In this document: piece after piece, positions 3,505-17,287 of the stretch
Layout of the letters: every line of letters begins with the position of its first letter
Numbering within the stretch: the stretch's first letter is position 1
From: Candidatus Coatesbacteria bacterium
GTDB lineage: Bacteria; RBG-13-66-14; B26-G2; JAUVZD01
Direction of reading: 5' to 3'
DNA: 64,000 bases
NCBI GenBank assembly: GCA_030602715.1
Contig: JAUVZD010000006.1
Span: 26,465 to 90,464 of the forward strand
Made by a program: the position numbers and the translations under genes
Notes under the pieces: model-generated
The model's input: only the letters and a program-made list of their open reading frames with translations
What the model was told of the DNA's origin: nothing
Databases searched by the model: none

Positions 3505-3509
3505 GAACC

Positions 3510-4820
3510 GTGCTTTATACCGACGCATTAGAATTTCTATATTCCTTCGTGGACTATGAGCGGCAGGAGATAACCCCCAGAGCCACCCGGGACTTTGACC
3601 TGGAGCGCTTCGCCCGTCTGCTCCATCTGTTGGACAAGCCGCAGGATTCCTTCAGGATAGTCCATATCGCCGGCACCAACGGCAAGGGTTCCACCGCTGC
3701 GATTCTGGCTAATATACTCTCCAACGCCGGTCTTCGTGTGGGGCTATACACCTCCCCCCATCTCAAGCACATTCGGGAGCGCATACGGGTGGACGGAGTG
3801 GATATAAACCGGGAGGAGTTCGCAGAGGGAATTGAGCAAATCCAGATGAAGCACTCCTTGTTGGATGGGAGTCAAGGGGGTTACCGCACCGTCTTTGAGA
3901 TCGTAACCGCTCTGTCTTTGCTTTACTTTCAGAGGCGTAATGTGGATTGGGCGGTGGTGGAAGCCGGGTTGGGCGGTCGGCTGGATGCCACCAACGTGCT
4001 CACTGCCGAGATGACCCTGCTTACACCTATAGACATAGACCATAGCAGAATCCTCGGTGAAACCCTGTCCGAGATAGCCACCGAGAAGGTGGCAATCATC
4101 AAGCCGGGAACGTTAGCCCTCTCCGCTCCCCAGAAGCCTGCCGTCAGGAGGGTTTTGTTTTCTAAAGGGGATGAACTGGGCGTTAGCGTGCGCATTTTAG
4201 GTCGGGACTATGAATATCAGGTATTACGGGCGGATTTATCCGGCACTGACTTTCTCCTGGAGGGGAAGGAGTATCAAACAACGCTTCTCGGAGGCTACCA
4301 GGTGATCAATTGCGCTCTGGCTGGTGCTGCCATTCTCTATCTACAAGAGAAGGGGTTGGTTGATGGTATTGAGGGGGCAATTGCCCCTGGCTTTCAAAAT
4401 CCTCGCTGGCCCGGTCGTCTGGAGGTCTGGGCGGGAAAGCCCACCTTAGTTTTTGACGGAGCGCACAACCCCGGCGGTGCTGAACAGTTGGCTCGCTCAT
4501 TTAAGGAGCTTTTCGGTGAGGAGAAGTGTGTGTTGGTTTTAGGGGTAACCAGGGGAAAGGATGCGGTGGGAATCGCATCTGCCCTGGCGCCTTTGGCACA
4601 TGCGGTCGTTATCACCCAGGCTGATTTCCCCCGGGCTATGCCGGCGGGTCAGCTTGCGAGAATTGTGGGTGAATATATAGACAATGTGAGGGTTGAGGAG
4701 AGGATGATGTACGCCCTGGAGGTGGCTAAAGAGCTTTCCTGCGGCAATCGCCCAATTCTGGTCGCCGGCTCGCTATATCTTATCGGCGATGTCCAGCGAA
4801 AACTGTCTCCTGATGACTGA
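3510..4820 (+). CDS. folC: Folylpolyglutamate synthase / dihydrofolate synthase
   Basis: HIAGTNGKGST P-loop, Mur-ligase-family central and C-terminal domains, 436 aa. GTG start. Confidence 0.8.
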   Translation: MLYTDALEFLYSFVDYERQEITPRATRDFDLERFARLLHLLDKPQDSFRIVHIAGTNGKGSTAAILANILSNAGLRVGLYTSPHLKHIRERIRVDGVDINREEFAEGIEQIQMKHSLLDGSQGGYRTVFEIVTALSLLYFQRRNVDWAVVEAGLGGRLDATNVLTAEMTLLTPIDIDHSRILGETLSEIATEKVAIIKPGTLALSAPQKPAVRRVLFSKGDELGVSVRILGRDYEYQVLRADLSGTDFLLEGKEYQTTLLGGYQVINCALAGAAILYLQEKGLVDGIEGAIAPGFQNPRWPGRLEVWAGKPTLVFDGAHNPGGAEQLARSFKELFGEEKCVLVLGVTRGKDAVGIASALAPLAHAVVITQADFPRAMPAGQLARIVGEYIDNVRVEERMMYALEVAKELSCGNRPILVAGSLYLIGDVQRKLSPDD

Positions 4821-4835
4821 AAGACGGAGTGAGGC

Positions 4836-5363
4836 TTGAGACCATCACAGGTTACATCCATGTTGGCTAAAGAACTGGTGGTGCAAGCCCTCCTTGTTGA
4901 GGGACGCAGTCTGTTGCTCACAGTTTCTGGAAGTTCCATGGAGCCCAATATTCTGGACGGTGATCTGGTGGATGTAGCGCCCATAGATGAAATCAGCAAA
5001 CTAAAAATCGGCGATGTGGTCCTGTTTGAGGAATATGGGGTGCTAATGCTTCATCGGGTTCTTAGGATTTATAGGAAAAGGGCACTTCTCAAGGGAGATG
5101 GAGCGTTGTTGAGCGAGGGAGCGGTCGCCTGGGACTTAGTTGTGGGTCGGGCGGAGAGCATTCGTCGGGGGGAGAGGGAGTACGACCTGAGGGGTTTGCG
5201 TGCAGGCAGTCGCGCCAGAGCCTGGGCAGGGATATCCCACCTGGTGGATTTTCTATTTAGATTGCTGGCGAGGATCAGTTGGGGGTTGGGGGGACGGGGT
5301 TCGTCAGCCCTGCGATGGGTCCTTCTCTTTCTTTCACGCATATTCAGATTGCCCTTGACTTGA
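4836..5363 (+). CDS. S24/S26-family peptidase-like protein (LexA C-domain or signal-peptidase-like Ser nucleophile motif)
   Basis: The motif TVSGSSMEPNILDGDLVDV resembles the GxSMxP…DGD catalytic region of the S24/S26 clan. The remainder is Arg-rich with no clear match. Confidence 0.35.
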   Translation: MRPSQVTSMLAKELVVQALLVEGRSLLLTVSGSSMEPNILDGDLVDVAPIDEISKLKIGDVVLFEEYGVLMLHRVLRIYRKRALLKGDGALLSEGAVAWDLVVGRAESIRRGEREYDLRGLRAGSRARAWAGISHLVDFLFRLLARISWGLGGRGSSALRWVLLFLSRIFRLPLT

Positions 5364-5431
5364 GCATAGAGCATTTAATATAATCAGTGGAAATGTATGA
5401 GCTTTTTGTAGTTTCACCGAAGGGGAATGCA

Positions 5432-6022
5432 ATGCGAATATCATTAATCCTGCTGGTGCTTATTTCAATTTTGAGCTGGGGAGGAGCTTATTGTGCACAG
5501 ATGGAACTTCCCCGCACAGCTGTCCTGGGGGAGGAGATCACCCTTGCCCTCACTCTTGATGGAGCGGAGGTATGTCTGGTCTTTACCCCGTATGAAGGCG
5601 GGGAGGCTTTCACCTACTCCTGCTTCTTTAGGGACGGGACCTTCCCCATAGATACCGGCAGATTTGCCCCCGGCAGTTACCTTGTGGAGCTGAGGGATGA
5701 TGGCGACGGAGAAATCCTGGACAGCACTATATTGATTATTACCACTGAGCCGGTATTCCAGTTAACCGACATCTATACCCGCCCCAATCCTTTTGACCTG
5801 ACCGCTACCAACCCCAGAGTTGAGTTCGTCAATGTTCCTCCCTGGGCTACGGTGCGCATCTTTGACCTGGGCGGGGAGTTGGTCATCAACTTGACCGGTA
5901 ATCCCATCTTGTGGGACGGTCGCAACCAGGACGGAGATTTTGTCAGCGCCGGTAGCTACATCTACCTGGTGGAAGATGAAAGCGGTAATGAATTCGTGGG
6001 AAAGATGGCGGTGTTAAAATAA
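5432..6022 (+). CDS. Secreted protein with a C-terminal FlgD-Ig/T9SS-type sorting-like domain
   Basis: ATG at 5432 is preceded by gaagggga. Signal peptide MRISLILLVLISILSWGGAYC. C-terminus …RPNPFDL…VRIFDLGGELV…GDFVSAGSYIYLV. The track ORF from 5387 is an in-frame upstream extension. Confidence 0.5.
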   Translation: MRISLILLVLISILSWGGAYCAQMELPRTAVLGEEITLALTLDGAEVCLVFTPYEGGEAFTYSCFFRDGTFPIDTGRFAPGSYLVELRDDGDGEILDSTILIITTEPVFQLTDIYTRPNPFDLTATNPRVEFVNVPPWATVRIFDLGGELVINLTGNPILWDGRNQDGDFVSAGSYIYLVEDESGNEFVGKMAVLK

Positions 6023-6024
6023 CT

Positions 6025-7125
6025 ATGCCGAAAGCTGTTGTCCTGTTGCTTCTGGTGGGGATGTTCATAGCTCTGGTCACTATGACCGGGGCGATTGATT
6101 TGGTCTCGGTAAGCGCTTTCCCCCATCTGACCTACACCCGCCTGGAGTTTACCTTTGATGGTGAGTTTGAGGTCGCCCAAAAGCCAGCACCTGAGGGGGG
6201 ATTGCGTTTCGTGGTAGCAACGGTCGGAATCGGTGATCTCCTCTCCTTACCCGATCTGTCTGTGGATAGGCTGGTTACGGGCGTATCGGTGGAGGGGACC
6301 GCACAGGGGCTGGAGCTATGCCTGGCTACTTCAATCTTTGCCGACCGCTTTGAGGCTTATGCGACTTCCGACCCGGATAGGTTGGTGGTCAAGGTTTATC
6401 GCAAGTTGGTCAACCTGGAGGAATATGCCACTTTACAGAGACGATTGGAAGCCGTCAGGGGGATGAAGATTCTTCTGGTTGATGATGACGACGGGATAAA
6501 TAATGGGAATATTCTCGGGGGAGTGGATGTAGATGGGATATATGAGAAAATCTTGACCGAAAACCTTATCACCTATGATATTCTGCGGGTGGGACACGGC
6601 TCTGCGGGTCCCTCCTACGACAAACTGAAGGACTATGACTGCGTCATCTGGTTTACCGGCATAGACGCCCTTCCATGTCTGCTCTGTTCCGCAGACCAGT
6701 CCAACTTGACCGGCTTTTTAGAGGGGGGAGGGCGCTTGCTATTGGTCAGCCAGAATTACCTCTCCGAGTTGGGGGTGAAGAACCCTACCGCCAATCTGGC
6801 TTTCAAGATGGGTATATGCAAGATAAAAGCGGACACTCAGGAGACCGATGTCTTTGGGGCTGAAGGGAGTTTCGCCTGGGGGCTGGCATTGGATTTGGAT
6901 TACAGGTTCAGGCCCGGGGGAAACTGGGGGGACGGCTTTGAGATTTCCGATAGTTCCTACAGCCGGGCGGTGCTTGTTGGGGATGATGGCAGATACTACG
7001 GCTTGCAAGGTGAGGTAGGACGAGGGAATTTTGTATTCTTTTCGGTGGCTTTTGAGAATGCCTCCATGCCCGTAGATCGGGAGGAGTTATTTTTGGCAGC
7101 CCTCGGCTGGTTAACGGGAAAATAA
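6025..7125 (+). CDS. Secreted/membrane-anchored hypothetical protein, 3 nt downstream of the 5432 gene
   Basis: N-terminal hydrophobic helix, 366 aa, no confident family assignment. Co-oriented with the upstream gene and nearly abutting it. Confidence 0.4.
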   Translation: MPKAVVLLLLVGMFIALVTMTGAIDLVSVSAFPHLTYTRLEFTFDGEFEVAQKPAPEGGLRFVVATVGIGDLLSLPDLSVDRLVTGVSVEGTAQGLELCLATSIFADRFEAYATSDPDRLVVKVYRKLVNLEEYATLQRRLEAVRGMKILLVDDDDGINNGNILGGVDVDGIYEKILTENLITYDILRVGHGSAGPSYDKLKDYDCVIWFTGIDALPCLLCSADQSNLTGFLEGGGRLLLVSQNYLSELGVKNPTANLAFKMGICKIKADTQETDVFGAEGSFAWGLALDLDYRFRPGGNWGDGFEISDSSYSRAVLVGDDGRYYGLQGEVGRGNFVFFSVAFENASMPVDREELFLAALGWLTGK

Positions 7126-7138
7126 AGATGAGTTTAAC

Positions 7139-7166
7139 TTGACTTGTCCTTCTGCCTGTGATAAAT
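7139..7166 (+). promoter_or_regulatory. Sigma70-like promoter: TTGACT, 16-nt spacer, ATAAAT (a TATAAT follows immediately downstream)
   Basis: ttgact at 7139..7144 and ataaat at 7161..7166, about 30 nt upstream of the 7195 start. Confidence 0.4.
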
Positions 7167-7194
7167 TTATAATGAGATTGAAAAGGAACTCAGT

Positions 7195-8031
7195 TTGATG
7201 TTATTCCCCACGACGAAATTTCTCATTTTGGCGGGTAATCTTATGAGTTTACTGAAATGCTTGGCGACCCTCTTTCTGGTTTTGGCTTTTGCCGGAAGTG
7301 CTTTGGGAGTTGCCATAACATACCAGTTTCAAACCGATCCACCGGAGCCCCAACCCATCGGATTGACCTATGACGGTAACTATCTTTGGGTTATGGGCCT
7401 AGTGAGCGGGGAACTCTATAAATACAGCACGGATGGCACTCTCATTGGCTCCTATACTCCGATTCCCACGATTACCTGGGTAACCGGGCTGGCTTATATC
7501 CCCGACGAGTACAGTATTTATGCCCTGAGGAATAACTATCCTGACCTTTCTGTGTATTCCATTTTTCTGTTTAATTTTCACACCGAAAATCTCTTCTCCG
7601 TCTCCATCTCATATCCTAATGGCTTGGCTTACGATGGTGATGATGGGCTGTGGATAGGTTCATCTAACTACGACCGATATGTTTATGGATTGGATATGAA
7701 CGGCGTGGAGTGGACCAGTTTTCCCACTTTGGCGAAGTACCCCTATGGGGTAATGACCGACGGGACCTATGTCTATGTCCTGGGTTACCAGGACGGGAAA
7801 ATTTGGAAGTACGATACGGACGGCAACACAATTTACGAAGACCCTTTTCCCCTGGACCCGCTCTTTGAGGTCGGTGAAGAGCACAATTACTGTGGTAATC
7901 TAGTATGGGCTGGGGACGGCGTCTTCTATCAGTCCTGTCGGGATACCTTTACCATATATAAAATTGACCTGAATGTAGAAGAAGCCGTTCAACCAAACAG
8001 CATCGGTTACATCAAAGCCTTGATGCGTTGA
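7195..8031 (+). CDS. Secreted beta-propeller-repeat protein of a paralog family (GLTYDGNYLWV…), sharing its C-terminal tail with the 37873 gene
   Basis: Signal peptide, then repeated Trp/Tyr/Asp/Gly-rich blade-like segments. Clearly paralogous to 37873..38691 (shared GLTYD…LWV segment and C-terminal SIGYIKALMR versus SLGEIRALFK). Confidence 0.55.
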   Translation: MMLFPTTKFLILAGNLMSLLKCLATLFLVLAFAGSALGVAITYQFQTDPPEPQPIGLTYDGNYLWVMGLVSGELYKYSTDGTLIGSYTPIPTITWVTGLAYIPDEYSIYALRNNYPDLSVYSIFLFNFHTENLFSVSISYPNGLAYDGDDGLWIGSSNYDRYVYGLDMNGVEWTSFPTLAKYPYGVMTDGTYVYVLGYQDGKIWKYDTDGNTIYEDPFPLDPLFEVGEEHNYCGNLVWAGDGVFYQSCRDTFTIYKIDLNVEEAVQPNSIGYIKALMR

Positions 8032-8064
8032 TGGTGGTCAGGCTTTTTCAGGAAGACCGACTAT

Positions 8065-8925
8065 ATGGCTGAGAATCTTCTCCCTCCTCGGATGAACATA
8101 GCGGACATCTCGTTTTTACTTGCTCTGCAAAACGAAGGACAGAGGGAGATAGTAGAAGGTTATTTAGACCATTCCGAAGCTCTGAGCGATAATATATACA
8201 AAATCGCTTTCTTTGAGCACGGAAAATATTTTAACCGACCCCCGGGTTACGAACCCACTTACGAAAGCCCTTATTATTATCGTGGGGGTGGTTTGGTTCA
8301 TTATCTGTGGAGCCAGACATTCTTTGGGTTCATTGATCTTCTGGTAAAGAGGGGACGTTTCTTTTTTTCCAGTAATAAGGAGCTTTTTGCAGAACCTTTT
8401 CTGCGTTTCTGCTCCGCTTGGGCTCTCTTCGATGGTGCCGGATTAATGTTCCATTCCGCTGGGTTGTCTCTTGCCGGATGCGGACTTCTCTTTCCTGCCC
8501 GACCGGAGGGGGGAAAGAGCACCATATGCAGTTTATCTTTGGGGTTGGCGGAAGTATTATGCGATGAGATGAACGTAGCCCGGCGCAGAGCCGACGGTTG
8601 GTATCTGTGGGGAACCCCCTTCTGGGGAGATGCGGATTCGGGAAGTAGGATTAGTCAGGGATTTCCCTTAAAGGCTATACTCTTCCCCCATAAAGACAAA
8701 AGATTTTGGCTGAAGAGGTGCGACGGCTCCAGCGCAGTTATCGGAATCCTTGCCAACATCCTTATGTTTGGACGCTCTGCGCAGGTTGGAAGGAAAGCTT
8801 TTGAGCTTGCCTGGGATATGGCGTTGAATGTCCCCACTTTTGACTTTGGGTTTACTCAGAGTAAAGATTTGGTATCCTATCTGAGGGAGAATCTTGTCGG
8901 AAAAATTTGCACAGAATCCCAATAG
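8065..8925 (+). CDS. HPr-kinase/phosphorylase C-terminal-domain-like P-loop protein (HprK-related kinase)
   Basis: 286 aa with a mid-protein Walker-A-like LFPARPEGGKSTICS, comparable to GxSGxGKSE of the HprK C-domain. First gene of the overlapping kinase-PqqD-rSAM set. Confidence 0.45.
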   Translation: MAENLLPPRMNIADISFLLALQNEGQREIVEGYLDHSEALSDNIYKIAFFEHGKYFNRPPGYEPTYESPYYYRGGGLVHYLWSQTFFGFIDLLVKRGRFFFSSNKELFAEPFLRFCSAWALFDGAGLMFHSAGLSLAGCGLLFPARPEGGKSTICSLSLGLAEVLCDEMNVARRRADGWYLWGTPFWGDADSGSRISQGFPLKAILFPHKDKRFWLKRCDGSSAVIGILANILMFGRSAQVGRKAFELAWDMALNVPTFDFGFTQSKDLVSYLRENLVGKICTESQ

Positions 8926-9166
8926 TGCCTTTCGCATCATAGACGGTGAGGCGGTCATACTCGTCCCTGAAAGGCAGACGCTCCATCGTTTGGCTGATGT
9001 TGGACTGCGAGTGTGGGAGCTAGCCTGTGAGGGCAAGGCAGAGGAGGAGATAAGTAAGCAGATTGCCGAGGAGTATGAGGTAGAAGCGGATAAGGCGGAG
9101 CGGGAGGCAAAGGAATTTTTGGAACTTTTGGTGAAAAATGGCATTATCATCCCCCAGAGTGAGTGA
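8894..9166 (+). CDS. PqqD-family protein (RiPP recognition element / peptide chaperone)
   Basis: 90 aa with the pattern FRIIDGEAVILVPERQTLHRLADVGLRVWELACEGKAEEEI…ELLVKNGII, typical of PqqD/RRE proteins. Overlaps both flanking genes. Confidence 0.65.
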   Translation: MSEKFAQNPNSAFRIIDGEAVILVPERQTLHRLADVGLRVWELACEGKAEEEISKQIAEEYEVEADKAEREAKEFLELLVKNGIIIPQSE

Positions 9167-10265
9167 GAGTAAGACCGTCGTTGAGGAGAAGCCCTCCGAT
9201 ATCTATAGCTGGCTGTTAGCCACCTCCTGGCAAGAGCTTATTCCCCTCTATACTTTGATTGAGCTTACCGGGGAGTGTAACCTCAACTGTCGGCATTGTT
9301 ACCTGACCGCCGAGGAGAAGACTAATAAGGGTCTGTCAACAGCCCAGTGGTTTGAGCTACTGGAGCAGTTGTATCACAGCAAGACATTATTCCTCAGTCT
9401 GAGCGGGGGAGAGATATTCCTGCGCCAGGACCTGTTCTCCATCATAGAAAAGGCAAGAGAACTCAACTTCTCCACACGTTTGTTTACCAACGGAACGCTC
9501 ATCACCAGGGATGTCGCCAGGCGGGTAGCCGAGACGTCTCCTGAAGCGGTGGAGGTGAGCCTTTACGGCGCTCTCCTTGAAACTCACGATTGGTTGACCG
9601 GCGTTCCCGGTTCCTTCAAAAAGACTATTGGGGCGGTTGAAGCGCTGGTGGAGTTGGGAGTCATGGTGGTAATCAAGAATGTGTGGATGAACTTTAATTG
9701 GACTGAAGCCGAAAGGTGGCTTTCCCTGGTCAGAAGGTTGGGAGCCCTTCCCCGTTGGTGCGTCAATGTGGTTCCGCAAAATGACGGGGCTTTAAGCCCC
9801 ACGGAGTTTCGCATGGGAGACGAGGAGCTTGCCGAACTGCATCGCTGGGAGCTTTCCGTGGAAAGAGATTATGATGGAGCGGAAGGCGCCGATGCCAATC
9901 CCTTTTGCGGGGCGGACGGCGATGGGGTTACCTCCCGCAGTAAGGAGAGGGTTTTGGGTTGCGGAGCGGCGGCTAATCATTGTATAATTGACATCAACGG
10001 AGAGGTGCTTCCCTGTTCACAGATTCGCATCTCCGCCGGAAATGTTACCAAGGAGCCTTTTGGACACATCTGGCGAGATTCCCGTTTTCTAAATCAACTC
10101 AGGGCAATTCGGGAACTGCCGGTATCGGGATGTGCGGGATGTTCCTATCTGGAGCAATGTGTGAGGTGTCCCGGACTGGCTTGGCTTGAGGACGGTGGTT
10201 TGGCTCTGCGGTCATCGTGGGCATGTAAAGTAGCCAGGATTTATTCGGAGGTGGAAGATGAATAA
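9138..10265 (+). CDS. Radical SAM enzyme with a C-terminal SPASM/twitch Cys-rich domain (peptide-modifying rSAM type)
   Basis: CNLNCRHCY (CxxxCxxC) near the N-terminus and the C-terminal cluster CGAAANHC…LPCSQ…CAGCSYLEQCVRCPG. The C-terminal Cys-cluster arrangement matches SPASM-type peptide-modifying radical SAM enzymes. Confidence 0.75.
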   Translation: MALSSPRVSESKTVVEEKPSDIYSWLLATSWQELIPLYTLIELTGECNLNCRHCYLTAEEKTNKGLSTAQWFELLEQLYHSKTLFLSLSGGEIFLRQDLFSIIEKARELNFSTRLFTNGTLITRDVARRVAETSPEAVEVSLYGALLETHDWLTGVPGSFKKTIGAVEALVELGVMVVIKNVWMNFNWTEAERWLSLVRRLGALPRWCVNVVPQNDGALSPTEFRMGDEELAELHRWELSVERDYDGAEGADANPFCGADGDGVTSRSKERVLGCGAAANHCIIDINGEVLPCSQIRISAGNVTKEPFGHIWRDSRFLNQLRAIRELPVSGCAGCSYLEQCVRCPGLAWLEDGGLALRSSWACKVARIYSEVEDE

Positions 10266-10407
10266 AAAGAAGAAATACAGCAAACCGACATTGGTATCCC
10301 AGAAGGTCTTTACCGCCACGTTGGGCTGTACCTGGACAAAGACCACTCCAGGCTGTATTTTACAGGAAAAACATCCTGGAGGATGGCCTCCGATTCCTCG
10401 CACCTGA
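10258..10407 (+). CDS. Candidate RiPP precursor peptide (49 aa): MNKKKKYSKPTLVSQKVFTATLGCTWTKTTPGCILQEKHPGGWPPIPRT
   Basis: Hand translation. The ATG at 10258 overlaps the rSAM stop (ATGAATAA), with GGAGGTG 6 nt upstream. Below the 60-aa cutoff of the ORF track. Lys-rich leader with YSKPTL, then a Thr- and Cys-containing core. Confidence 0.5.
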   Translation: MNKKKKYSKPTLVSQKVFTATLGCTWTKTTPGCILQEKHPGGWPPIPRT

Positions 10408-10562
10408 TGCTCTATCGCCCTTGGCATCATGTCAATGTCGGTCTCAGCGGGAGTTGTAGCCCTTTCATCTGGAGGCGAAGATGTGCCTGGAGGTAAAATG
10501 GGAGGTGTGGGAACATCCTGCCGGGCGGTGGTTAAGGGATAGATTACAGTTTTTGTGTATCC

Positions 10563-10595
10563 AGCGGATGGGAGCTTTACCCATCCGCTTTTTTC
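10563..10595 (+). terminator. Rho-independent terminator closing the kinase-PqqD-rSAM-peptide operon
   Basis: 10-bp stem agcggatggg/cccatccgct with a 7-nt loop, followed by TTTTTT. Confidence 0.6.
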
Positions 10596-10645
10596 TCGCT
10601 TTCGTATCATCAAAATGCCCCACACATTTTTAATAACCTCACCAC

Positions 10646-10674
10646 TTGACTTATGGGGTGTAGGGGTGTAAATT
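10646..10674 (+). promoter_or_regulatory. Sigma70-like promoter: TTGACT, 17-nt spacer, TAAATT
   Basis: ttgact at 10646..10651, 17-nt spacer, taaatt at 10669..10674, with aggagg upstream of the 10715 start. Confidence 0.4.
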
Positions 10675-10714
10675 AATATATAAGTGAAAAGAGATTTACT
10701 AGAAAGGAGGTTTT

Positions 10715-12382
10715 GTGGTGCGTTACTTAACTGCGGGAATAGGGTTCTTGCTGGTTTTAGCCCTGGCGATGGGGTTAACCTTCGCCGGGAGTTGGGAGAT
10801 AACCTCTGTTGATACATCGCTGGAACAATATAGTGGGCAAACCTCCATAGTGATTGACTCATCTGACTATCCCCACATATCGTATTTTGATAATTGGTAT
10901 ACCGCCGATCTAAAATATGCGTTCTGGGATGTTTCCGGTTGGGAGATAAGCGCTGTTGATACGGAGGAGTATGTAGGTTCTTTCAGCTCCATAGCAATTG
11001 ACTTTTTCAACAAACCCCACATATCGTATTACGATATTGGCAACGGTGACCTCAAATATACGCATTGGGATGGTTCTATCTGGCTGACGGTGACCGTTGA
11101 CGCTGAAGGATATACGGGCTTTCATAGCTCAATTGCCCTTGACTCATCCAATAATCCCCACATATCTTATTACAACTGGAGCAACGGGGACCTCAAATAT
11201 GCGTTTTGGGATGACTATAGTTGGCAGATAATGACTGTAGATACTGCGGGGGATGTAGGTATGACCCCATCCATTGTGCTTGACGCATATAACCGCCCTC
11301 ACATATCGTATTACGATAACAGCGCCGGTGACCTCAAGTATGCCTACTATGGAGGCTCTACCTGGCAGATCTCCTCAGTTGATACTTCGGGAGACGTAGG
11401 TTGGAATACCTCCATTGCAATTGACTCGGATGATTGTCCCCACATATCGTATTACGATGCTACCGATGGGAACCTCAAATATGCCTATTACGATGGTTCC
11501 AACTGGCAGATAATCTCCGTTGACACTTCTGGAAATGTGGGTGATTGTAGTTCCATTGCGATTGACTCAGATGATTATCCTCACATATCGTATCTGCACC
11601 TGGATGACTTAGACCTTAAGTATGCCTGGTGGTCGGGAAGCAAATGGAAATTCGTGACCGTGGACAGTGAAGGATGGGTGGGCTTTGATACCTCCATAGC
11701 CCTGGATAGCCAGGATAATCCCCACATCTCGTATTATGACTCCACCAACAACGACCTCAAGTATGCCCGGTATATTCCTTCTGTAGAGGTTGAACTTGCC
11801 TCCTTCACAGCTCAGGGGGAGGGGGATTCTATCTCCTTATGCTGGATAGTCCATGCTACCGAGGGCGAGGACATCCTGGGCTTCAACCTTTATCGCCGGG
11901 AGGCTGAGGTAAGAGAACCATCTTCCCCCTTAGGGACGGATTTTTCCCAAATATGCAAGCCCATCAATTCGGGGCTTATCACCGGACAGAACCCCTACAA
12001 TTACACCGACTCCGGAGTGGAGGGGGGGCGCAGATACGAATATCGCCTGGAGGCGGTGTTTGCCGACGATACTCCGACCACGCTGGGCACCTGTCAGGTG
12101 ACCGCCGGCATCACACCCCGATGGTTCTCCATCATTGCCGTCTATCCCAATCCCGCCTGCGAGCGGCTGACCTGTCTTCTCTTTGTGCCCGATGCAGGTG
12201 CGGTGGAGCTATGCCTATACGACCTCTCCGGTCGCCTGGTGGCGGAGAAGCGCCTAACTGCCGACGAGGCGGGGGAGATGGAAGCCGAACTATGTGTTGC
12301 CGGACTTGCGTCGGGGGTTTATTCACTGCGGGCGTACGCTTTCGGTGCAAGCGCTGATGGTTGTGCGGTTATAGTCAGGTAA
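10715..12382 (+). CDS. Secreted seven-repeat (PHISYYD…GDLKYA…W…VDT…SIAIDS) putative beta-propeller protein with a T9SS-type C-terminal sorting domain
   Basis: Signal peptide, then seven tandem repeats of about 47 aa (DNA period about 141-147 nt across roughly 10790..11780). C-terminus …VYPNPACERL…LYDLSGRLV…GVYSL… resembles the Por/T9SS tail. Confidence 0.55.
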   Translation: MVRYLTAGIGFLLVLALAMGLTFAGSWEITSVDTSLEQYSGQTSIVIDSSDYPHISYFDNWYTADLKYAFWDVSGWEISAVDTEEYVGSFSSIAIDFFNKPHISYYDIGNGDLKYTHWDGSIWLTVTVDAEGYTGFHSSIALDSSNNPHISYYNWSNGDLKYAFWDDYSWQIMTVDTAGDVGMTPSIVLDAYNRPHISYYDNSAGDLKYAYYGGSTWQISSVDTSGDVGWNTSIAIDSDDCPHISYYDATDGNLKYAYYDGSNWQIISVDTSGNVGDCSSIAIDSDDYPHISYLHLDDLDLKYAWWSGSKWKFVTVDSEGWVGFDTSIALDSQDNPHISYYDSTNNDLKYARYIPSVEVELASFTAQGEGDSISLCWIVHATEGEDILGFNLYRREAEVREPSSPLGTDFSQICKPINSGLITGQNPYNYTDSGVEGGRRYEYRLEAVFADDTPTTLGTCQVTAGITPRWFSIIAVYPNPACERLTCLLFVPDAGAVELCLYDLSGRLVAEKRLTADEAGEMEAELCVAGLASGVYSLRAYAFGASADGCAVIVR

Positions 12383-12678
12383 AACGCAGTTCTTTTCGTC
12401 TTGCGGATGGGTTGAGCCCAAACCACGAGCTAAGGGTTGCTCATCCCCAAATATTTTACTTTCATGTTGCTAAGTTCCCTTGAGCCGACCGAGCAATAGG
12501 ACAATTGTAATTTTTTCAAATTACTCACCCTGGTGTGAGGAGAGTTGGTGGAATACTTGATGGGAACAGTTGTATAAGGGCATAAATTAAAAGAGTTTTA
12601 TTTGAGTAAATGGAACGGGTATGATACATTTTTTTACCTATTTTTTTCTTACAGCAATTTTGAATTGGTGGGGAAGAT

Positions 12679-14223
12679 TTGAGAGTTCGGGGATATATCA
12701 AGTGGCTGGTTGCGGTAGGAATATTTCTGGCTCTCTTGCTTCTGGACTATTTCCAGAGGGGAGAGGTGGAAAAACTGTCCCGGCAAAACCTCACCCTTGC
12801 CAGTGAGAAGGTAACCCTTTCTGTGGAGCGCTCCCTGACCGAGCCGGCGAGTATCGTGCGCCGCTTGCTGGGGATTGTGGAGACCTTCGGGATGGTTGGA
12901 CAGAAGGAGTATGAATCCCCGGGCATAAGCGTCGCAGAGGATTATTCCTTCGTCGTCCAATCGGGGATAATCACCCAGGACAATCAAGTGTTGGCGGAAT
13001 ATCCCCACCATCCCTCCTCGCTTAACGGTGAGACCGTCGCCAAAATGCTCCATTCCGGTGGAAAGACCTTCGTCGGCGGTGAGGGGAAGGTGCCGGTATA
13101 TGTGAGCGACCTTACCGAGACCGCCGACGATAAAATCCTCCTTTACAGCGCCCGGATGCGAGAAGAGAAGGAAGTCGGCTATCTCTATCTGGCTGTCTCC
13201 GTTGCCGACCTGATTCCCCAACCACCGGCTTTGAGTGAGGATGAGGGCTATTGGATGGCAATATACGATTCCAGTAGACAAGAGGTCCTCTCCCACCGAA
13301 TGGACCAAGCCCAGGATTTGGGCATCTCCGCCGAACTTTTTAGCGGGGGGGAGAATCCCTGGACTCTCAAGGTGGGCTATGTCTCCGGCAGTAGCAAAGG
13401 TTGGGTTGTGGGTCGTTTCGTCAACTTTACCTTCGGCATCCTGGTTGCCATCATCATCTGGATTTTGATATTCTTGCTGGACCGCCGGGCTAATACCCTC
13501 GCCTCTGCAGTGAAGAAACGCACCCAGTCCCTGGAGAATGTCAACAAGGAGATGGAGGAGTTCGTCTATGTGGTCTCCCACGACCTGAAGTCGCCGCTTA
13601 TCACCATCCAGGGGATGATAGACCTGTTTGTGGACTCACCTCAGGGGAAGAGGCTCTCCAAGCGCAGTCGGGAGTTTATGGAGACCATCAAAGCAGCCTC
13701 GGAGCGGATGGGGGACCTGATAGGCGACCTGCTTCAGCTTTCCCGGGTGGGCAGGTTTGATGTGGAGACGGAGCAAGTCAACATCGCCGAGGTAGTGGAA
13801 GTGGTCTTCTCCGAGGTGCGCACCGTAGGTGTGAAATACCGCTTCAACTTCTCCATGGAGGGCAATTTCCCCACTCTGCGAGTAAACCGCCGGCGCATCT
13901 ATCAGATATTCGCCAACTTAATCAATAATGCGGTCAAGTTCATGGGTGAGGACAACACCGAGCCCTATGTGCTGGTCACCTGTGAGGATAAGGGCGGGTT
14001 CTACGAATTTCGGGTCAAGGACAACGGTCCGGGAATAGACCCCCGTTACCATAGGAGAATCTTCGGGGTCTTCAAGCGCCTGCACGGTCGGCGGGTGGAA
14101 GGCACCGGCATCGGTCTGGCTTTCGTTAAAAAGATTGTGGAAACGCAGGGGGGTATCATCTGGGTGGAGTCGGATGTCGGCAGGGGCGCCGAGTTTATCT
14201 TCACCCTTCCCAAAGAGGATTAA
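12679..14223 (+). CDS. Sensor histidine kinase (periplasmic sensor, TM, HisKA, HATPase_c)
   Basis: H-box VSHDLKSPL, N-box/G-boxes (NLINNAVKF, DNGPGID, GTGIGLA). Two TM segments flank a periplasmic domain of about 200 aa. Confidence 0.8.
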   Translation: MRVRGYIKWLVAVGIFLALLLLDYFQRGEVEKLSRQNLTLASEKVTLSVERSLTEPASIVRRLLGIVETFGMVGQKEYESPGISVAEDYSFVVQSGIITQDNQVLAEYPHHPSSLNGETVAKMLHSGGKTFVGGEGKVPVYVSDLTETADDKILLYSARMREEKEVGYLYLAVSVADLIPQPPALSEDEGYWMAIYDSSRQEVLSHRMDQAQDLGISAELFSGGENPWTLKVGYVSGSSKGWVVGRFVNFTFGILVAIIIWILIFLLDRRANTLASAVKKRTQSLENVNKEMEEFVYVVSHDLKSPLITIQGMIDLFVDSPQGKRLSKRSREFMETIKAASERMGDLIGDLLQLSRVGRFDVETEQVNIAEVVEVVFSEVRTVGVKYRFNFSMEGNFPTLRVNRRRIYQIFANLINNAVKFMGEDNTEPYVLVTCEDKGGFYEFRVKDNGPGIDPRYHRRIFGVFKRLHGRRVEGTGIGLAFVKKIVETQGGIIWVESDVGRGAEFIFTLPKED

Positions 14224-14238
14224 GGAGGATATTTTATC

Positions 14239-14646
14239 ATGCTCAATATTTTGCTTATTGAGGACGAGCCGGAGCACCGAACTATCACCCGGCTGGTTCT
14301 GGAGGACCGCTTAGGTCCTTTTCGCCTAATGGAGGTGGAGGACGGTCTGGAGGGGATGAAGTATATGCAAGGTCGGGGAAAATACCGCAACCGCAGCAAG
14401 TATCCCCTTCCGGATATTATCCTGCTGGACATCCGTATGCCCAAGGTGGACGGCTTTGAGTTCATGGAGGAGATAAGTGGAAACCGCTTAATGGAGCAGA
14501 TTCCGGTGATAATCATCTCCACCTCAACCCAGGAACAGGAGATATCAAGAGCCTTCTCCCTGGGGGCTTACGCCTACATCACCAAGCCCATAAATTTTGA
14601 TAAACTGGTGGAGAAGATAATATCCGCCAGGGATGCGAAGGGATGA
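14239..14646 (+). CDS. Single-domain response regulator (CheY-like receiver)
   Basis: LLIEDEP…DIILLDIRMPKVDGFEF…K, 135 aa, no output domain. 15 nt after the kinase gene. Confidence 0.8.
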   Translation: MLNILLIEDEPEHRTITRLVLEDRLGPFRLMEVEDGLEGMKYMQGRGKYRNRSKYPLPDIILLDIRMPKVDGFEFMEEISGNRLMEQIPVIIISTSTQEQEISRAFSLGAYAYITKPINFDKLVEKIISARDAKG

Positions 14647-14757
14647 TGTTCGTCGGCATATTTTGAGTAAAACAGTTGGGATTAAGCTGTTATGCTCTCC
14701 TTCCGGGGTTGTCGTTAGCATCGTCGCCTTTAACCTATGAAGGTTCAAATAAGGTAA

Positions 14758-14781
14758 TCCCCGTCCTGAAAAGGGCGGGGA
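14758..14781. terminator. Stem-loop between the convergent response-regulator gene and tRNA-Glu (a possible bidirectional terminator)
   Basis: tccccgtcc / gggcgggga stem of 9 bp with one G-U pair and loop tgaaaa. Modest T-runs on both sides. Confidence 0.35.
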
Positions 14782-14796
14782 TGGTTGTATTCGGAA

Positions 14797-14868
14797 TGAC
14801 CCCAAGGGGACTCGAACCCCTGCTGCCGCCGTGAAAGGGCGGAGTCCTTACCGCTAGACGATGGGGCC
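14797..14868 (-). tRNA. tRNA-Glu (anticodon TTC)
   Basis: The reverse complement GGCCCCATCGTCTAGCGGTAAGGACTCCGCCCTTTCACGGCGGCAGCAGGGGTTCGAGTCCCCTTGGGGTCA folds with a 7-bp acceptor stem, anticodon loop CTTTCAC and T-loop GGTTCGAGTCC. CCA is not encoded. Confidence 0.85.
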
Positions 14869-14921
14869 TCAGTAATTTAGCATTTTAAGACAACTTTGGC
14901 GCCGAATCAAGGGGAAAATCG

Positions 14922-15902
14922 TCACTGGGTGTAGCGATTGACAATCGCCAGCGCCTGGGGGTCGGCGAACCCCCCCATGGTCATCAGAGTATCCCCGGTG
15001 GTGCCTATGTGCACCAGTTGGTTGTTTGTGGGGTCGGCGACCCAACAGGTTAAACCGTCATACACCGCGCCGATACAGCTGATGGTGCCGAAGCCGGATA
15101 CGGTGTATTCAATTGAAGCATCTGTGCGCACCAGGTGGAGGTCGCCGTCCTCTTCGGCGAGCCAAATATACTGCGAGGGCTCATCATATGACATCATAAC
15201 CGGTCTTTCGCAGACGGGATTGTTCACATCAAATTCAAGCACTTCCCCGTTCAACTGATACAGGAAGAGGTTGCCGGTCTCATACTCTACAACCCAGCAG
15301 GAGCCGGTATCCGTCTCCACCACCGGGCTTACGGGGGTGGTCACCTCAAAGGAGACCAGCTCGTCTCCGCCGGAGGTGATGCAGGTAAGGGTTCCACTGT
15401 AGTCGGCTACCCACACATACCCCCGAGCCTTATCCACATCCAGGTGGCGCACCTCGGTGAAGCCATCGTAGCGTGCAATTATGTCCCCCTCGCTTGACAG
15501 GTGCACCACCCGCCCGCCCAGACCGTCAGCCACCCACACGGTGTCGTCATAATAACTATATACCACCCAGCGGGGGTCGGTGAAGCCGGCGATTATCTTC
15601 TCAATCTCTCCGTCCCTGCTTAAGCGATAGAGCTTCTTCTGCCCGGCGTCCAATGCCCACAGTTGGCTGTCCTCAAAATCCACGCTCATACTGACAATGT
15701 CCTCAAAGCCCCCCATGTTGATGACATACTCGCCGGGTTCGGGGTCTATCTTGACCAGGCGGTCGGTGCCGGAACTGAAGACCCAGACGAAGTCGCTGTC
15801 ATCGGGCTGAAACTGCCAATCAACCGGGCAGGATATTATTATAGTGACCGTTGCTAGAAGCATGAGGGTGGTTAAGAGCCTTTTTACCGTTTTCATTTTC
15901 AT
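14922..15902 (-). CDS. Secreted beta-propeller repeat protein (repeats …VWVADxxGGRVVHL… about every 40 aa)
   Basis: Signal peptide MKMKTVKRLLTTLMLLATVTIIISC, then at least seven blade-like repeats each containing [VC]W[VL][AV][DE]. Confidence 0.5.
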   Translation of the reverse strand: MKMKTVKRLLTTLMLLATVTIIISCPVDWQFQPDDSDFVWVFSSGTDRLVKIDPEPGEYVINMGGFEDIVSMSVDFEDSQLWALDAGQKKLYRLSRDGEIEKIIAGFTDPRWVVYSYYDDTVWVADGLGGRVVHLSSEGDIIARYDGFTEVRHLDVDKARGYVWVADYSGTLTCITSGGDELVSFEVTTPVSPVVETDTGSCWVVEYETGNLFLYQLNGEVLEFDVNNPVCERPVMMSYDEPSQYIWLAEEDGDLHLVRTDASIEYTVSGFGTISCIGAVYDGLTCWVADPTNNQLVHIGTTGDTLMTMGGFADPQALAIVNRYTQ

Positions 15903-15915
15903 CGTTTCCCGGGGG

Positions 15916-16638
15916 CTAGGGTTTTTGGCATTTTAGCAGGCTGTGGATGCGAATATCAACTACCCAGAGTATGTCTCCGTCAATAGCCAGACCGGTGGGG
16001 TTATGCCATGGGGCTAGATGGTATTCAAATATGCTCATCTCGCTGTTAAAAAGGTAGATGAGCCCCTGAAAGTAGTCGCAAGCCCAGAGGGTGTCCCCGT
16101 CAAAGGTGAGACCGAAGTAAAAGTCATAGTTGTAAGTGCCGGCGTAGGTTTCGGCGACGGAGAGGTCGTTTTCGTGCAGATAGATACAACCAGCGACCCT
16201 ATCCGCACTCCACAACCGCCCCTGGGGGTCAAATGCCAGCCCGGAGATGTCCTCGGCGGGTGCGGGGTAGGTTTTGGCGACGGTGAAGTCGGGGTTTAGC
16301 TTATAGATGCTGTCGCTGTCCTCGTCGGAGACCCAGAAGTTAGCCCCATCATAGGCGATAGCGGTGGGCTTCACCCCGGGGGCGCCATATATGGAGATGG
16401 TGCTGCCGTCGTCCGCTGAGACCAGGTAGATATAACCGGGATAATCCCTATCCACCAGCCAGATTCCCTGGGAGGTTGCCACCAGACCGCAGGGGGAGGT
16501 AGCCTCCAGGGGATAGTGGTTGAGGACGGTCAGGTCGGATTGATAGGGGTCCTCTTTCTCGGTCTCATTGCCGCAATTGGCAAGCAGGGCGCTCAGGAGA
16601 AGGAGTATCAGTAAGGCTGTGTTTTTACTCTTGGTCAT
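15916..16638 (-). CDS. Secreted/lipoprotein beta-propeller repeat protein (YDGANFWVSD, FDGDTLWACD, IDGDILWVVD repeats)
   Basis: Signal peptide with Cys (LLANCGNE). The repeat signature DGxxLWVxDxxxxxIY… is shared with the 7195, 37873 and 14922 genes. Confidence 0.5.
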   Translation of the reverse strand: MTKSKNTALLILLLLSALLANCGNETEKEDPYQSDLTVLNHYPLEATSPCGLVATSQGIWLVDRDYPGYIYLVSADDGSTISIYGAPGVKPTAIAYDGANFWVSDEDSDSIYKLNPDFTVAKTYPAPAEDISGLAFDPQGRLWSADRVAGCIYLHENDLSVAETYAGTYNYDFYFGLTFDGDTLWACDYFQGLIYLFNSEMSIFEYHLAPWHNPTGLAIDGDILWVVDIRIHSLLKCQKP

Positions 16639-16714
16639 AGGTGGATTGAAAGGGATCTTTGGGATTGGCGCACACTCCCAAATTAACTAGCGAATAAGGG
16701 GACCTGTTAGCAGG

Positions 16715-17086: not shown

Positions 17087-17287
17087 GGGGATGGTGTTGA
17101 AGGACTGCTACCAAAAGGACGATGCGTCTATTCAGATGAACTCATATACATTATATTCCCTTTTGCAGGCTAAGTCAAGGGAATTTATAGCAAATGGAAA
17201 TTGTTGAAAACAAACCCGTTCTGTGTTAATTTCTGATTGTAAAATCCTTTAGCCATTTCCGGCTGAGTAGGAGGCGGAAGGTATTCC

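Follow-up and report, generated by a model that had tools for sequence, protein, structure and literature searches.

An operon joining a kinase-fold protein, a lasso-type recognition element and a radical-SAM/SPASM enzyme represents a widespread family of RiPP clusters

The locus described here is a biosynthetic cluster for a small modified peptide (RiPP) and belongs to a widespread family with an as yet uncharacterised product. It lies in a 64,000-nucleotide stretch of DNA (the window, by which we mean the whole stretch analysed), where four co-directional genes form a chain on the + strand (8065-10407) and encode a protein of kinase fold, a RiPP recognition element (RRE), a radical-SAM/SPASM enzyme and a real precursor peptide with a diversifying core. 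The same four components co-occur across the family, and its precursors show a bias towards Ser or Thr at the C-terminus. The product is likely a cross-linked, phosphorylated peptide, a chemistry that we infer, as we do each reaction of the pathway, the sites of phosphorylation and cleavage, and the membership of a peptidase encoded upstream. In the pathway that we propose, and for which our confidence is good, RRE-guided cross-linking by the radical-SAM enzyme would be combined with phosphorylation by the kinase and removal of the leader by the peptidase.

An earlier note on this DNA had described an overlap-chained, co-directional operon closed by a clean terminator, and the coordinates and overlaps are as it claimed. 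Gene 1, a ScmC-family P-loop protein of HprK/PEPCK fold (8065-8925, +, 286 aa, ATG start), overlaps gene 2, a discrete PqqD-family RRE (8894-9166, +, 90 aa, TTG start), and this in turn overlaps the open reading frame of gene 3, the radical-SAM/SPASM enzyme (9138-10265, +, 375 aa, ATG start). The second overlap (9138 against 9166) is present between the reading frames, but the true start of gene 3 is uncertain and may lie later than 9138; homologues at 60% identity are 358 aa long and do not overlap the PqqD gene. The precursor ORF (10258-10407, +, 49 aa, ATG start) begins inside gene 3: in ATGAATAA the peptide ATG occupies 10258-10260 and the radical-SAM stop TAA 10263-10265. As read from the sequence, a Shine-Dalgarno GGAGG (10247-10251, +) stands 6 nt 5' of this ATG, and GGAGGTGGAA is likewise found 5' of the peptide ATG in two related loci (L001 and L002). 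The operon is closed by an intrinsic terminator (10563-10595, +; hairpin 10563-10589 followed by a T-run), which ranks top among the terminator-like sites in a 13 kb scan (1-13000) and whose hairpin (10 pairs, 7 of them G-C; -19.6 kcal/mol; z = -4.15) was equalled in folding by 0 of 200 shuffles. It is conserved in L004 and in L091, where one stem change, C to T on the 3' arm, still permits G-U pairing.

The cassette is located in a polysaccharide/capsule locus. The description of the neighbours as secreted beta-propellers calls for correction: for the gene at 7195 the label comes from a weak SGL match (E 0.0075) and nothing else, and the product of the gene at 10715 has BNR-like repeats and a tail for T9SS sorting. 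A second radical-SAM gene in the window (27077-28084) is 17 kb off, on the opposite strand and unrelated. In a motif screen of ABC-like genes near 44 cassettes, such a gene lay close to only 1, and no MsbA-like exporter was found with the window cassette; NTP_transf_5 had no match in the window.

As judged from comparative sequence, the 49-codon ORF is a genuine precursor gene and not a chance ORF, because in-frame orthologues occupy the same position in six close relatives (L004, L091, L001, L092/L093 and L006). The peptide consists of MNKKKKYSKPTLVSQKVFTATLG followed by CTWTKTTPGCILQEKHPGGWPPIPRT, with the predicted cleavage site between the two parts, and it combines a Lys-rich leader carrying a YxxPxL motif (Y7-x-x-P10-x-L12) with a conserved pair of Cys and a C-terminal PRT that is likewise conserved. 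In the comparison with L004, dN was 0.056 for the leader, 0.257 for the core and 0.027-0.041 for the enzymes; the core evolves 6-9 times faster (dN) than the enzymes, with the Cys residues and the PP[IV]PRT tail retained, and its dN/dS is about 1.5 against L091. No Pfam or NCBIfam model matched the precursor, and its exact sequence was absent from a collection of 15 billion proteins.

This cassette, together with a precursor of the same type, recurs across many phyla, in 33 of 80 species-representative loci, and the cassette occurs in Omnitrophota, Planctomycetota, Kiritimatiellia, Elusimicrobiota, Acidobacteriota, Nitrospirota, Desulfobacterota, Chloroflexota and others. A small ORF with a YxxPx[LIVM] leader directly follows the radical-SAM gene in 24 of the 33 ScmC-positive loci versus 2 of the 47 ScmC-negative ones (Fisher p = 5.5e-11; species-representative loci, n = 80). 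Among 44 ScmC loci, 42 have a radical-SAM gene, 36 an RRE, 19 a SipW-like peptidase and 13 an NTP_transf_5 gene. Most precursors contain three Cys (21/31) or two (7/31), and 25 of the 31 end in Ser or Thr, versus a background of 16%; the six without a terminal Ser or Thr include one mis-picked ORF (L022), where what is likely the true precursor ends in Ser. The adjacent small Cys/Thr peptide on which the earlier note had staked its reading is matched in homologous triads elsewhere, where a small Cys peptide is nearly always adjacent and no PQQ- or mycofactocin-type setting was seen.

Gene 2 matches PF05402 (PqqD; E 6e-14), in agreement with the PqqD-type RRE read from it earlier. Its top NCBIfam match is lasso_PqqD_Bac (E 6e-11; 42 bits, below the cut-off of 80). 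A profile built from 21 cassette RREs matched TbiB1 (5v1u) at E 6e-20, followed by 9x90_B (6e-14), 9x8z_B (7e-12) and TfuB1 (1e-8), and because PqqD itself (3g2b) reached just 1e-7, we classify gene 2 by sequence profile as a discrete RRE of the type found in lasso B1 proteins and in linear polyphosphorylated peptide (LPP) systems. The models for ScmD (16.7 bits; cut-off 100) and for PqqD_rel_X of the HPr-rel-A system (TIGR04353; 16.9 bits, cut-off 35) were both missed.

For gene 1, the motif RPEGGKST (residues 146-153) had suggested an HprK C-domain-like protein, and the protein does have the PEPCK/HprK fold, whose absence in profile searches the earlier note had named as a refutation. Its fold resembles that of PEP carboxykinase, and it has a P-loop as well as a conserved His and a conserved Asp. 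The pattern H...GxGxLF...GKST...DE extends across 33 relatives, in which H130 and GKST are invariant and D167 nearly so. No Pfam family, including the HPr-kinase C-domain PF07475, was matched in a local library that is without the PF27840 model, and a PDB search with the protein's own sequence returned no match. Precomputed PF27840 (ScmC) matches are flagged 'weak' on homologues at 94-49% identity and unflagged on the L007 and L009 homologues. Against the ScmC model TIGR04249 gene 1 scores 16 bits (E 0.0056), short of the cut-off of 125, and the more distant cassette members reach just 25-39 bits. The HPr-rel-A neighbourhood named in the earlier note amounts to a distant match, in that HPr-rel-A kinase A (TIGR04352) scores 24.9 bits and misses its cut-off of 200. 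From its fold, its P-loop and analogy, gene 1 most likely encodes a peptide Ser/Thr kinase.

That gene 3 is a radical-SAM protein with a SPASM domain, as first noted, is confirmed by matches to PF04055 (3e-17) and PF13186 (1e-8). It carries a CNLNCRHC motif, and nine Cys are invariant in 24 relatives (C47, C51 and C54, together with C275, C293, C332, C335, C341 and C344); the SPASM domain is full, and no RRE is fused to it. All of its NCBIfam scores are far below cut-off, both for NirJ2 (151 bits; cut-off 500), AhbD (139; 500), ScmE (125.3; 400) and ScmF (92; 400) and for the mycofactocin and PQQ enzymes MftC (115.5; 265) and PqqE (93; 381), and the sacti- and ranthipeptide maturase models StsB (96.8; 625), AlbA (65.4; 850) and PapB (58.7; 340) were missed as well. 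The closest PDB matches are SkfB (2e-14), BlsE, PqqE and SuiB. On these profile scores we describe gene 3 as an unclassified radical-SAM/SPASM enzyme.

The earlier note had seen neither a lasso cyclase nor a leader protease. The operon indeed has no lasso cyclase or B2 protease, but a candidate leader peptidase lies outside the interval that it considered, in a SipW/archaeal-type signal-peptidase-I-like gene at 4836-5363 (+, 175 aa). Its product matches TIGR02228 sigpep_I_arch (E 1.3e-8), SipW (7e-7) and PF00717 (3e-6) and contains the motifs GSSMEP, HR and KGD. TIGR02228 is matched by 14 of 15 cassette-linked homologues; across the 15, H73 and R74 do not vary, and S34 and D88 hardly do. Synteny is kept in L001 and L006, and the gene adjoins the cassette in eight further loci (L007, L009, L011, L021, L022, L038, L050 and L060), and this synteny and recurrence in the family suggest that it belongs to the cluster. 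In the window it is 2.7 kb upstream of the cassette with three genes between, at least one of which encodes a T9SS sorting tail, and the peptidase might instead process the proteins of these intervening genes. In the LPP family, the SipW-like LppS removes the leader in an RRE-dependent manner (PMC13381572), and by analogy the window protein is probably the leader protease of the cluster.

The proposed pathway would begin with the 49-residue precursor (10258-10407), whose Lys-rich leader would be bound at YxxPxL by the gene 2 RRE, a module used by lasso peptides and by LPPs. Recognition through YxxP is established for lasso peptides (PMC12710340), and in LPPs the binding of LppB requires this motif (PMC13381572). 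The RRE would present the precursor to gene 3, which would most likely convert the two core Cys into intramolecular thioether cross-links, and also to gene 1, which would most likely phosphorylate a Ser/Thr hydroxyl, with the conserved C-terminal Thr49 as the best candidate. The SipW-type peptidase homologue (4836-5363) would then most likely cut off the leader, probably near TATLG|C.

The pathway could run as proposed with gene 3 making another modification than a thioether, for example a C-C or C-O cross-link, an epimerisation or an MftC-like C-terminal chemistry, and with the Cys serving for disulfide formation or metal binding; this is a real but rather unlikely possibility. The top family scores of gene 3 belong to non-thioether enzymes (NirJ2, AhbD, ScmE and MftC) and not to sacti- or ranthipeptide maturases, and the most conserved part of the core is its C-terminus (PP[IV]PRT in the window lineage, GS in the main clade). 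The RRE that serves gene 3 is discrete, as in PqqE/PqqD and MftC/MftB, whereas in most sacti- and ranthipeptide synthases it is fused to the enzyme. However, scores so far below cut-off do not discriminate between chemistries, SkfB, which forms thioethers, is the solved relative nearest in sequence, and no core residues other than the Cys are conserved in every clade, which argues for the thioether. A second alternative, improbable in our view, is that gene 1 is an ATP-binding partner rather than a peptide kinase, such as a scaffold, an ATP-dependent chaperone of the precursor or a phosphorylase. In lasso precursors, HprK-like kinases add phosphate to the Ser at the C-terminus (PMC8498205), and the LPP kinase targets Ser3 of the LPP core (PMC13381572). 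The counterpoint to phosphorylation by LPP analogy is that the window peptide ends in Thr, which LppK does not accept in place of Ser (PMC13381572). Against a non-kinase role stand the His, P-loop and Asp positions conserved as in HprK/P, the strong C-terminal Ser/Thr bias of the precursors, and the fact that the related lasso and LPP kinases are proven peptide Ser kinases (PMC8498205, PMC13381572) with the same RRE, NTP_transf_5 and SipW-type partners.

Two further readings would change the nature of the product. It is very improbable that the peptide is the precursor of a PQQ- or mycofactocin-type redox cofactor instead of a secreted or bioactive peptide: a discrete PqqD-family protein paired with a SPASM radical-SAM enzyme, the presence of MftC and PqqE among the family matches of gene 3 and the lack of an exporter nearby would fit a cofactor, but the core is hypervariable between near-identical clusters (the dN/dS of about 1.5 against L091), as cofactor precursors are not, the RRE belongs to the lasso rather than the PqqD type, MftC and PqqE score below cut-off, and the operon has no PqqB/C, MftD/E/F-like genes or partner dehydrogenases. 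Nor do we give more than the slightest credence to a degenerate or split lasso-peptide cluster whose cyclase and B2 protease are encoded elsewhere. Its lasso-B1-type RRE, its YxxPxL leader and an HprK-like gene as in paeninodin-type clusters (PMC8498205) are what such a cluster would show; yet Pfam/NCBIfam scans of the ORFs scanned within 1316-18667 found neither a lasso C cyclase nor a B2 protease, a Pfam scan of ten cassette-flanking window ORFs likewise, and the gene calls for L001 and L004-L010 included neither, with no asparagine-synthetase-like cyclase or transglutaminase-like B2 among those for seven related loci. Moreover, translational coupling ties the radical-SAM gene to the RRE and the peptide, and wherever the leader might plausibly be cleaved, the core has no Asp/Glu at positions 7-9 from the cut.

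Beyond the proposed pathway of cross-linking, phosphorylation and leader removal, we put forward tentatively, as a proposal of nearly even standing, that the window holds an example of a new and phylogenetically widespread RiPP class, in which a lasso-type module has recruited a radical-SAM cross-linker, an HprK-fold C-terminal Ser/Thr kinase and a signal-peptidase-type leader protease. If this is true, such clusters would make cross-linked phosphopeptides that an NTP transferase would modify further in some clades, and the precursors with a [KR][KR]xYxKPx[LI] leader would be the missing substrate of SynChlorMet-type cassettes. A literature search found no published description of a kinase plus radical-SAM RiPP, and to that extent the earlier note's "undescribed" system stands; the word is nevertheless too strong, because the architecture is already catalogued as the SynChlorMet cassette (TIGRFAMs/NCBIfam) and ScmC as PF27840.

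The nearest characterised systems are the LPPs, known from LppA/K/B/S/D/N of Paenibacillus alginolyticus (Popov et al. 2026, PMC13381572), and the phosphorylated lasso peptides. With the LPPs the window shares the core gene set of a discrete lasso-type RRE, an HprK-like kinase-fold protein and a SipW/archaeal-type peptidase homologue, as well as the polysaccharide/capsule setting, and 13 of 44 relatives of its cassette also have an NTP transferase. Both leaders carry YxxPx[L/V]; the window leader YSKPTLVSQKVFTATLG, with its QKVF, and the LPP consensus YxxPxVLxHQxIxFETxxS share YxxPx[LV] and Q..[VI].F with a one-residue offset, and the FET and Ser3 position of the consensus are unmatched in the window. 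Whereas the LPP product is linear and the LPP core set has no cross-linking enzyme, the cassettes here have short, Cys-containing cores, and in the window a radical-SAM/SPASM gene is coupled in translation to the RRE and the precursor, an enzyme that is present in 42 of 44 cassettes and unmentioned in the main text of the LPP paper (PMC13381572). The window also differs in having no MsbA-like exporter and its lineage in having no NTP transferase; the hosts are uncultured Gram-negative bacteria and candidate phyla, whereas LPPs are reported to be restricted to Bacillota, and the conserved candidate phosphosite is the C-terminal Ser/Thr, whereas the proven LPP site is core Ser3. Phosphorylated lasso peptides (paeninodin and pseudomycoidin; PMC8498205) resemble the family in their HprK-like kinase, B1-type PqqD RRE, [Y/W]xxP leader motif and, in some, a nucleotidyltransferase, and their kinase acts on the C-terminal Ser hydroxyl of the precursor, in line with the Ser/Thr end of 25 of 31 precursors here; they differ in that the family has a radical-SAM/SPASM enzyme in place of the macrolactam cyclase and B2 protease and a core without the ring-forming Asp/Glu.

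Sacti- and ranthipeptides (AlbA, SkfB, CteB and PapB) have in common with the window an RRE-guided SPASM radical-SAM maturase and a Cys-containing core or precursor, but those systems have neither an HprK/PEPCK-type kinase-fold partner nor a SipW-type peptidase; here the RRE is a separate protein, and the maturase models score far below cut-off. The nearest catalogued system is the SynChlorMet cassette (ScmC/ScmD/ScmE/ScmF; TIGR04248-04251; Pfam PF27840), of which the window locus is a divergent relative. Both contain a ScmC-family protein, a PqqD homologue and a PqqE-like radical-SAM/SPASM enzyme, but all four models miss their cut-offs in the window (ScmC 16/125, ScmD 16.7/100, ScmE 125/400 and ScmF 92/400 bits), and SynChlorMet has two PqqE-like radical-SAM/SPASM proteins (ScmE and ScmF), whereas the window operon has one. 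The TIGRFAMs entry for SynChlorMet reportedly states that the SCM precursor was not identified; in the family described here, the precursor family is identified.

The gene cluster in the window is a real RiPP cluster and belongs, as a divergent member, to a large and still uncharacterised family akin to the linear polyphosphorylated peptides (LPPs), the phosphorylated lasso peptides and SynChlorMet, and the concrete new result of this work is the identification of a precursor family for these cassettes. ORF calling reproduced the four gene positions proposed in an earlier note: gene 1, encoding a ScmC-family HprK/PEPCK-fold protein (8065-8925, + strand, 286 aa), gene 2, encoding a discrete PqqD-family RiPP recognition element (RRE; 8894-9166, +, 90 aa, TTG start), gene 3, encoding a radical-SAM/SPASM enzyme (9138-10265, +, 375 aa), and the precursor peptide ORF (10258-10407, +, 49 aa). 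The start of the peptide ORF does overlap the end of the radical-SAM gene as that note had described, with ATGAATAA linking the start at 10258 to the stop at 10263-10265, and a GGAGG can be read 6 nt 5' of this ATG. The terminator that it had placed behind the operon is likewise present, the hairpin at 10563-10589 (-19.6 kcal/mol, z = -4.15 against shuffles) with its T-run being the top terminator-like site of the first 13 kb. From the peptidase gene at 4836 onward, the genes 5' of the operon are co-directional with intergenic gaps of 3-70 nt; therefore, the transcription unit may begin well 5' of 8065. The sites at 5355 and 7144 resemble sigma-70 promoters by consensus match only.

The surroundings of the operon show several further features. 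Three function-unassigned genes (5387-8031, +) lie between the peptidase gene and gene 1, encoding proteins of 211 aa (with a T9SS/CHU_C sorting tail), 366 aa and 278 aa (weak SGL match); their arrangement is conserved within the lineage (3756-6443 in the related locus L001 and 4139-6829 in L006), and their products may be substrates of the SipW-like peptidase, or the genes may be passengers with no link to the cluster. The 155-nt spacer from the peptide stop to the terminator (10408-10562) has diverged less than the peptide core between the window and the close relative L004, is only about 55 nt long in relatives with 49-54% gene 1 identity, where the 155-nt form is absent, and may be a 3'-UTR element. 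A 37-aa ORF within it (10429-10542) was rejected as a gene because of a 23-nt deletion there in the close relative L091, and a 216-aa ORF on the minus strand (10212-10862) was treated as spurious because it overlaps the precursor gene, whose frame is conserved by relatives. Behind the terminator, a 555-aa secreted protein (10715-12382, +) carries BNR-like repeats of about 47 aa (PHISYYD...DLKYA) and a T9SS C-terminal sorting domain, and the 141-144-nt period of its DNA produces a false promoter-like ladder (10854, 10998, 11139, 11280, 11421 and 11562). This gene is missing at the equivalent position in L001 and L006 and is thus an insertion relative to those loci. A histidine kinase gene 3' of the cluster (12679-14223, +) has lineage counterparts within 9163-11174 of L001 and 9529-11541 of L006, and a response regulator lies 3' of the histidine kinase in both and 3' of the cassette in a third related locus, L009. 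Two-component genes (5-6 of 44 loci) and ABC exporters (1 of 44) were both rejected as general cassette partners.

The assignment of the small ORF is based on comparison with close relatives, all of which have an in-frame orthologue abutting the radical-SAM stop. The window peptide is MNKKKKYSKPTLVSQKVFTATLGCTWTKTTPGCILQEKHPGGWPPIPRT, and its counterparts are MNKKKKYSKPTLESQKVFTATLGCTWTKSWPTCMLQEKHPGLPPIPRT in L091 (95% gene 1 identity to the window), MNKKRKYSKPILESQKVFTATLGCTATKQTPTCIFQRKKPVWPPIPRT in L004 (94%), MKKRKIYRKPTLTSQKVYTATAGCTATQFYSLCIEQMKRPLPPVPRT in L001 (54%), MKKRKIYRKPTLTSQKVYTATAGCTATQFYSLCIERMKRPLPPVPRT in L092/L093 (53% in the tblastn best segment) and MKKRKIYRKPQLTSQKVFTATEGCTATQFYSLCIERKKRNLPPVPRT in L006 (49%). 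Length differences among them are whole codons, and the two Cys residues and the PP[IV]PRT tail are retained in every one. By the Nei-Gojobori method, dN between the window and L004 was 0.027-0.041 for the enzymes, 0.056 for the leader and 0.257 for the core; against L091, the values were 0.014-0.024, 0.018 and 0.141, with a core dN/dS of about 1.5 from small counts. Because slow change in the leader and rapid change in the core are the standard mark of RiPP precursors, we assign this ORF as the precursor peptide. The exact window peptide is absent from a collection of 15 billion proteins, and thus gene calling had missed it there.

Gene 1 had no match in a local Pfam library scan, only weak NCBIfam matches (HprK_rel_A 1e-5, ScmC 0.006), and noise only in a single-sequence PDB search with its kinase region. 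Only three close homologues were found among 5.8 billion protein clusters, all with a precomputed hit to PF27840 'ScmC', and the relation to known folds becomes visible only by family profile and predicted structure. The AlphaFold model from a 33-member alignment (pLDDT 88.4, pTM 0.88) matched, one Euglena complex I subunit aside, only PEPCK and HprK families in Foldseek at E<1e-3. In the same alignment H130 and GKST show no variation and D167 almost none, mirroring the HprK pattern His ... GxGxL ... GxSGxGKS ... DD. These structural matches and the conserved His, P-loop and Asp sustain the HprK-C fold similarity on which the earlier note had staked its reading; nevertheless, the protein lacks kinase-family membership at the sequence level, so its predicted kinase role should be read with caution. 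When 1.84 billion representatives (50% identity clusters) were searched with a family profile, the ScmC-type family numbered 4,918 proteins at E<=1e-30; at E<=1e-10 there were 22,506.

Gene 2 is, as proposed, a PqqD-type RRE (PF05402, E 6e-14), and among NCBIfam models the lasso B1 chaperone fits it best (6e-11, below cut-off). A profile of 21 cassette RREs searched against the PDB also found lasso B1 proteins first (TbiB1 6e-20, 9x90_B 6e-14, 9x8z_B 7e-12, TfuB1 1e-8) and reached PqqD only at 1e-7. Gene 3 has the expected CxxxCxxC motif and the full SPASM Cys set, is too short to accommodate a fused RRE, and falls below every curated NCBIfam cut-off (NirJ2 151/500, AhbD 139/500, ScmE 125/400, MftC 115/265); its best solved sequence relative is the thioether-forming SkfB. 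A defence system was rejected, as PADLOC matched only generic radical-SAM (viperin). The window also holds a second, unrelated radical-SAM/SPASM gene (27077-28084, -, 335 aa), whose best NCBIfam match is a tungsten-cofactor oxidoreductase maturase (118 bits against a cut-off of 380) and whose neighbours encode a 665-aa protein without Pfam match (28278-30275, +) and a ThiF-family protein (30265-31020, +).

Radical-SAM relatives at 33-39% identity were found within the same cassette type, and in four related loci (L007, L008, L009 and L010) the gene order is NTP_transf_5, ScmC, PqqD, radical SAM, small ORF and S24-like peptidase. Scanning a single genome of each species gave 80 loci, and in 33 of these our own HMMs found the radical-SAM gene adjoined by a ScmC-family gene; one further locus with a marginal ScmC match (E 8e-5) was left out at a stricter threshold. 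The hosts are Omnitrophota, Planctomycetota, Kiritimatiellia, Elusimicrobiota, Dehalococcoidia, Anaerolineae, Acidobacteriota, Nitrospirota, Verrucomicrobiota, Desulfobacterota, Fermentibacteria and Aminicenantes. Among 44 ScmC loci, 42 have a radical SAM, 36 a discrete RRE (counted with a length-restricted PqqD/RRE model), 19 an S24-like peptidase and 13 an NTP_transf_5 gene. A small ORF with a [KR][KR]xYx[KP]Px[LIV] leader lies directly 3' of the radical-SAM gene in 24 of 33 ScmC-positive species loci versus 2 of 47 ScmC-negative ones (Fisher p = 5.5e-11); the two negative cases do not resemble the precursor family, and several of the remaining positive loci have the precursor elsewhere in the cassette. 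Three Cys follow the leader in 21 of 31 distinct precursors, typically as ...EEVLAxGCK...C...C...GS, and two Cys in 7. Ser or Thr ends 25 of the 31 (GS in 11), against a small-ORF background of 16% in these loci (binomial p 4e-15, which overstates independence because the sequences are related); of the six that end otherwise, one is an ORF picked in error in L022, where the likely true precursor has a terminal Ser. Eight representative precursors were scanned against Pfam and NCBIfam, and none had a match. A B12-binding radical-SAM gene lies directly 3' of the precursor in L007 (7229-8647, +), and additional radical-SAM matches occur in the L022 and L040 cassettes, which suggests further tailoring, e.g. 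methylation, in some clades.

The S24-like proteins of the cassettes have GxSMxP, HR and KGD motifs in common, and 14 of 15 matched the archaeal-type signal peptidase I model and 10 of 15 SipW. Synteny of the window copy (4836-5363) is kept in L001 and L006. The parts of the cassette, their folds, their coupling and their family-wide association are direct observations, and a maturation route may be proposed in which the RRE would dock the YxxPxL leader and the radical-SAM enzyme would cross-link the core via conserved Cys. We favour a thioether, with odds near even; the leading alternative is a different kind of radical reaction, which might act on the conserved C-terminus. The SipW-type enzyme would cut near TATLG|C, where small residues at -1 and -3 suit signal-peptidase specificity. 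The ScmC-type protein would phosphorylate a hydroxyl, most plausibly that of terminal Thr49; a caution on this prediction is that the LPP kinase LppK did not accept Thr at its site (Popov et al. 2026, PMC13381572).

A lasso-peptide reading was rejected because neither a lasso cyclase nor a B2 protease turned up among the called genes of seven related loci or in a Pfam scan of ten ORFs around the window cassette, and a cofactor reading because of the hypervariable core, the lasso-type RRE and MftC and PqqE scores below cut-off. Family databases have listed ScmC/PqqD/radical-SAM cassettes for over ten years, to our knowledge without a known substrate or product. This work supplies them with a conserved precursor family (YxxP leader, core with two or three Cys, C-terminal Ser/Thr) and ties them to two experimentally characterised systems, the phosphorylated lasso peptides and the LPPs. 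This tie suggests that lasso-type RRE, HprK-like kinase and SipW-type peptidase make up a portable toolkit, which this cassette family joins with radical-SAM chemistry across many uncultured phyla. The window cluster is short, with four genes and one peptidase gene upstream of them.

We found no description of a combined kinase and radical-SAM RiPP in the literature searched, which had most subscription journals outside its coverage. The TIGRFAMs cassette SynChlorMet has the same architecture as the window locus, which however misses every SynChlorMet model cut-off and has one radical-SAM enzyme instead of two; more typical members of the wider ScmC family also fall below these cut-offs, and thus the curated models cover only a corner of the family. 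According to a review (PMC8498205), kinases of the paeninodin type add phosphate to the linear precursor at its C-terminal Ser, and in pseudomycoidin a nucleotidyltransferase glycosylates this phosphate. In LPPs, whose leader consensus is YxxPxVLxHQxIxFET, LppK polyphosphorylates core Ser3, and LppS removes the leader only with LppB present (PMC13381572); 'radical SAM' was not found in the main text of that paper. The window itself is largely a polysaccharide or capsule locus (1316-4820 and 24092-34954), with a polysaccharide deacetylase, an MGDG-synthase-like glycosyltransferase, a Mur-ligase/FolC-like protein, a Bac_transf sugar transferase, two epimerases/dehydratases, Wzi and UDP-glucose dehydrogenase. 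LPP clusters are also located in capsule-polysaccharide loci (PMC13381572), and therefore a connection of the peptide with the biology of the envelope or of polysaccharides is possible. Beyond this common setting, the window locus resembles the LPPs and phosphorylated lasso peptides in RRE type, leader motif, kinase fold and peptidase type, whereas it is set apart by the added radical-SAM/SPASM enzyme, the Cys in its core, the lack of an exporter and, in the window lineage, of an NTP transferase. Unlike the LPPs, which were described in Bacillota and reported as restricted there (Popov et al. 2026, PMC13381572), cassettes of the window type occur far outside that phylum.
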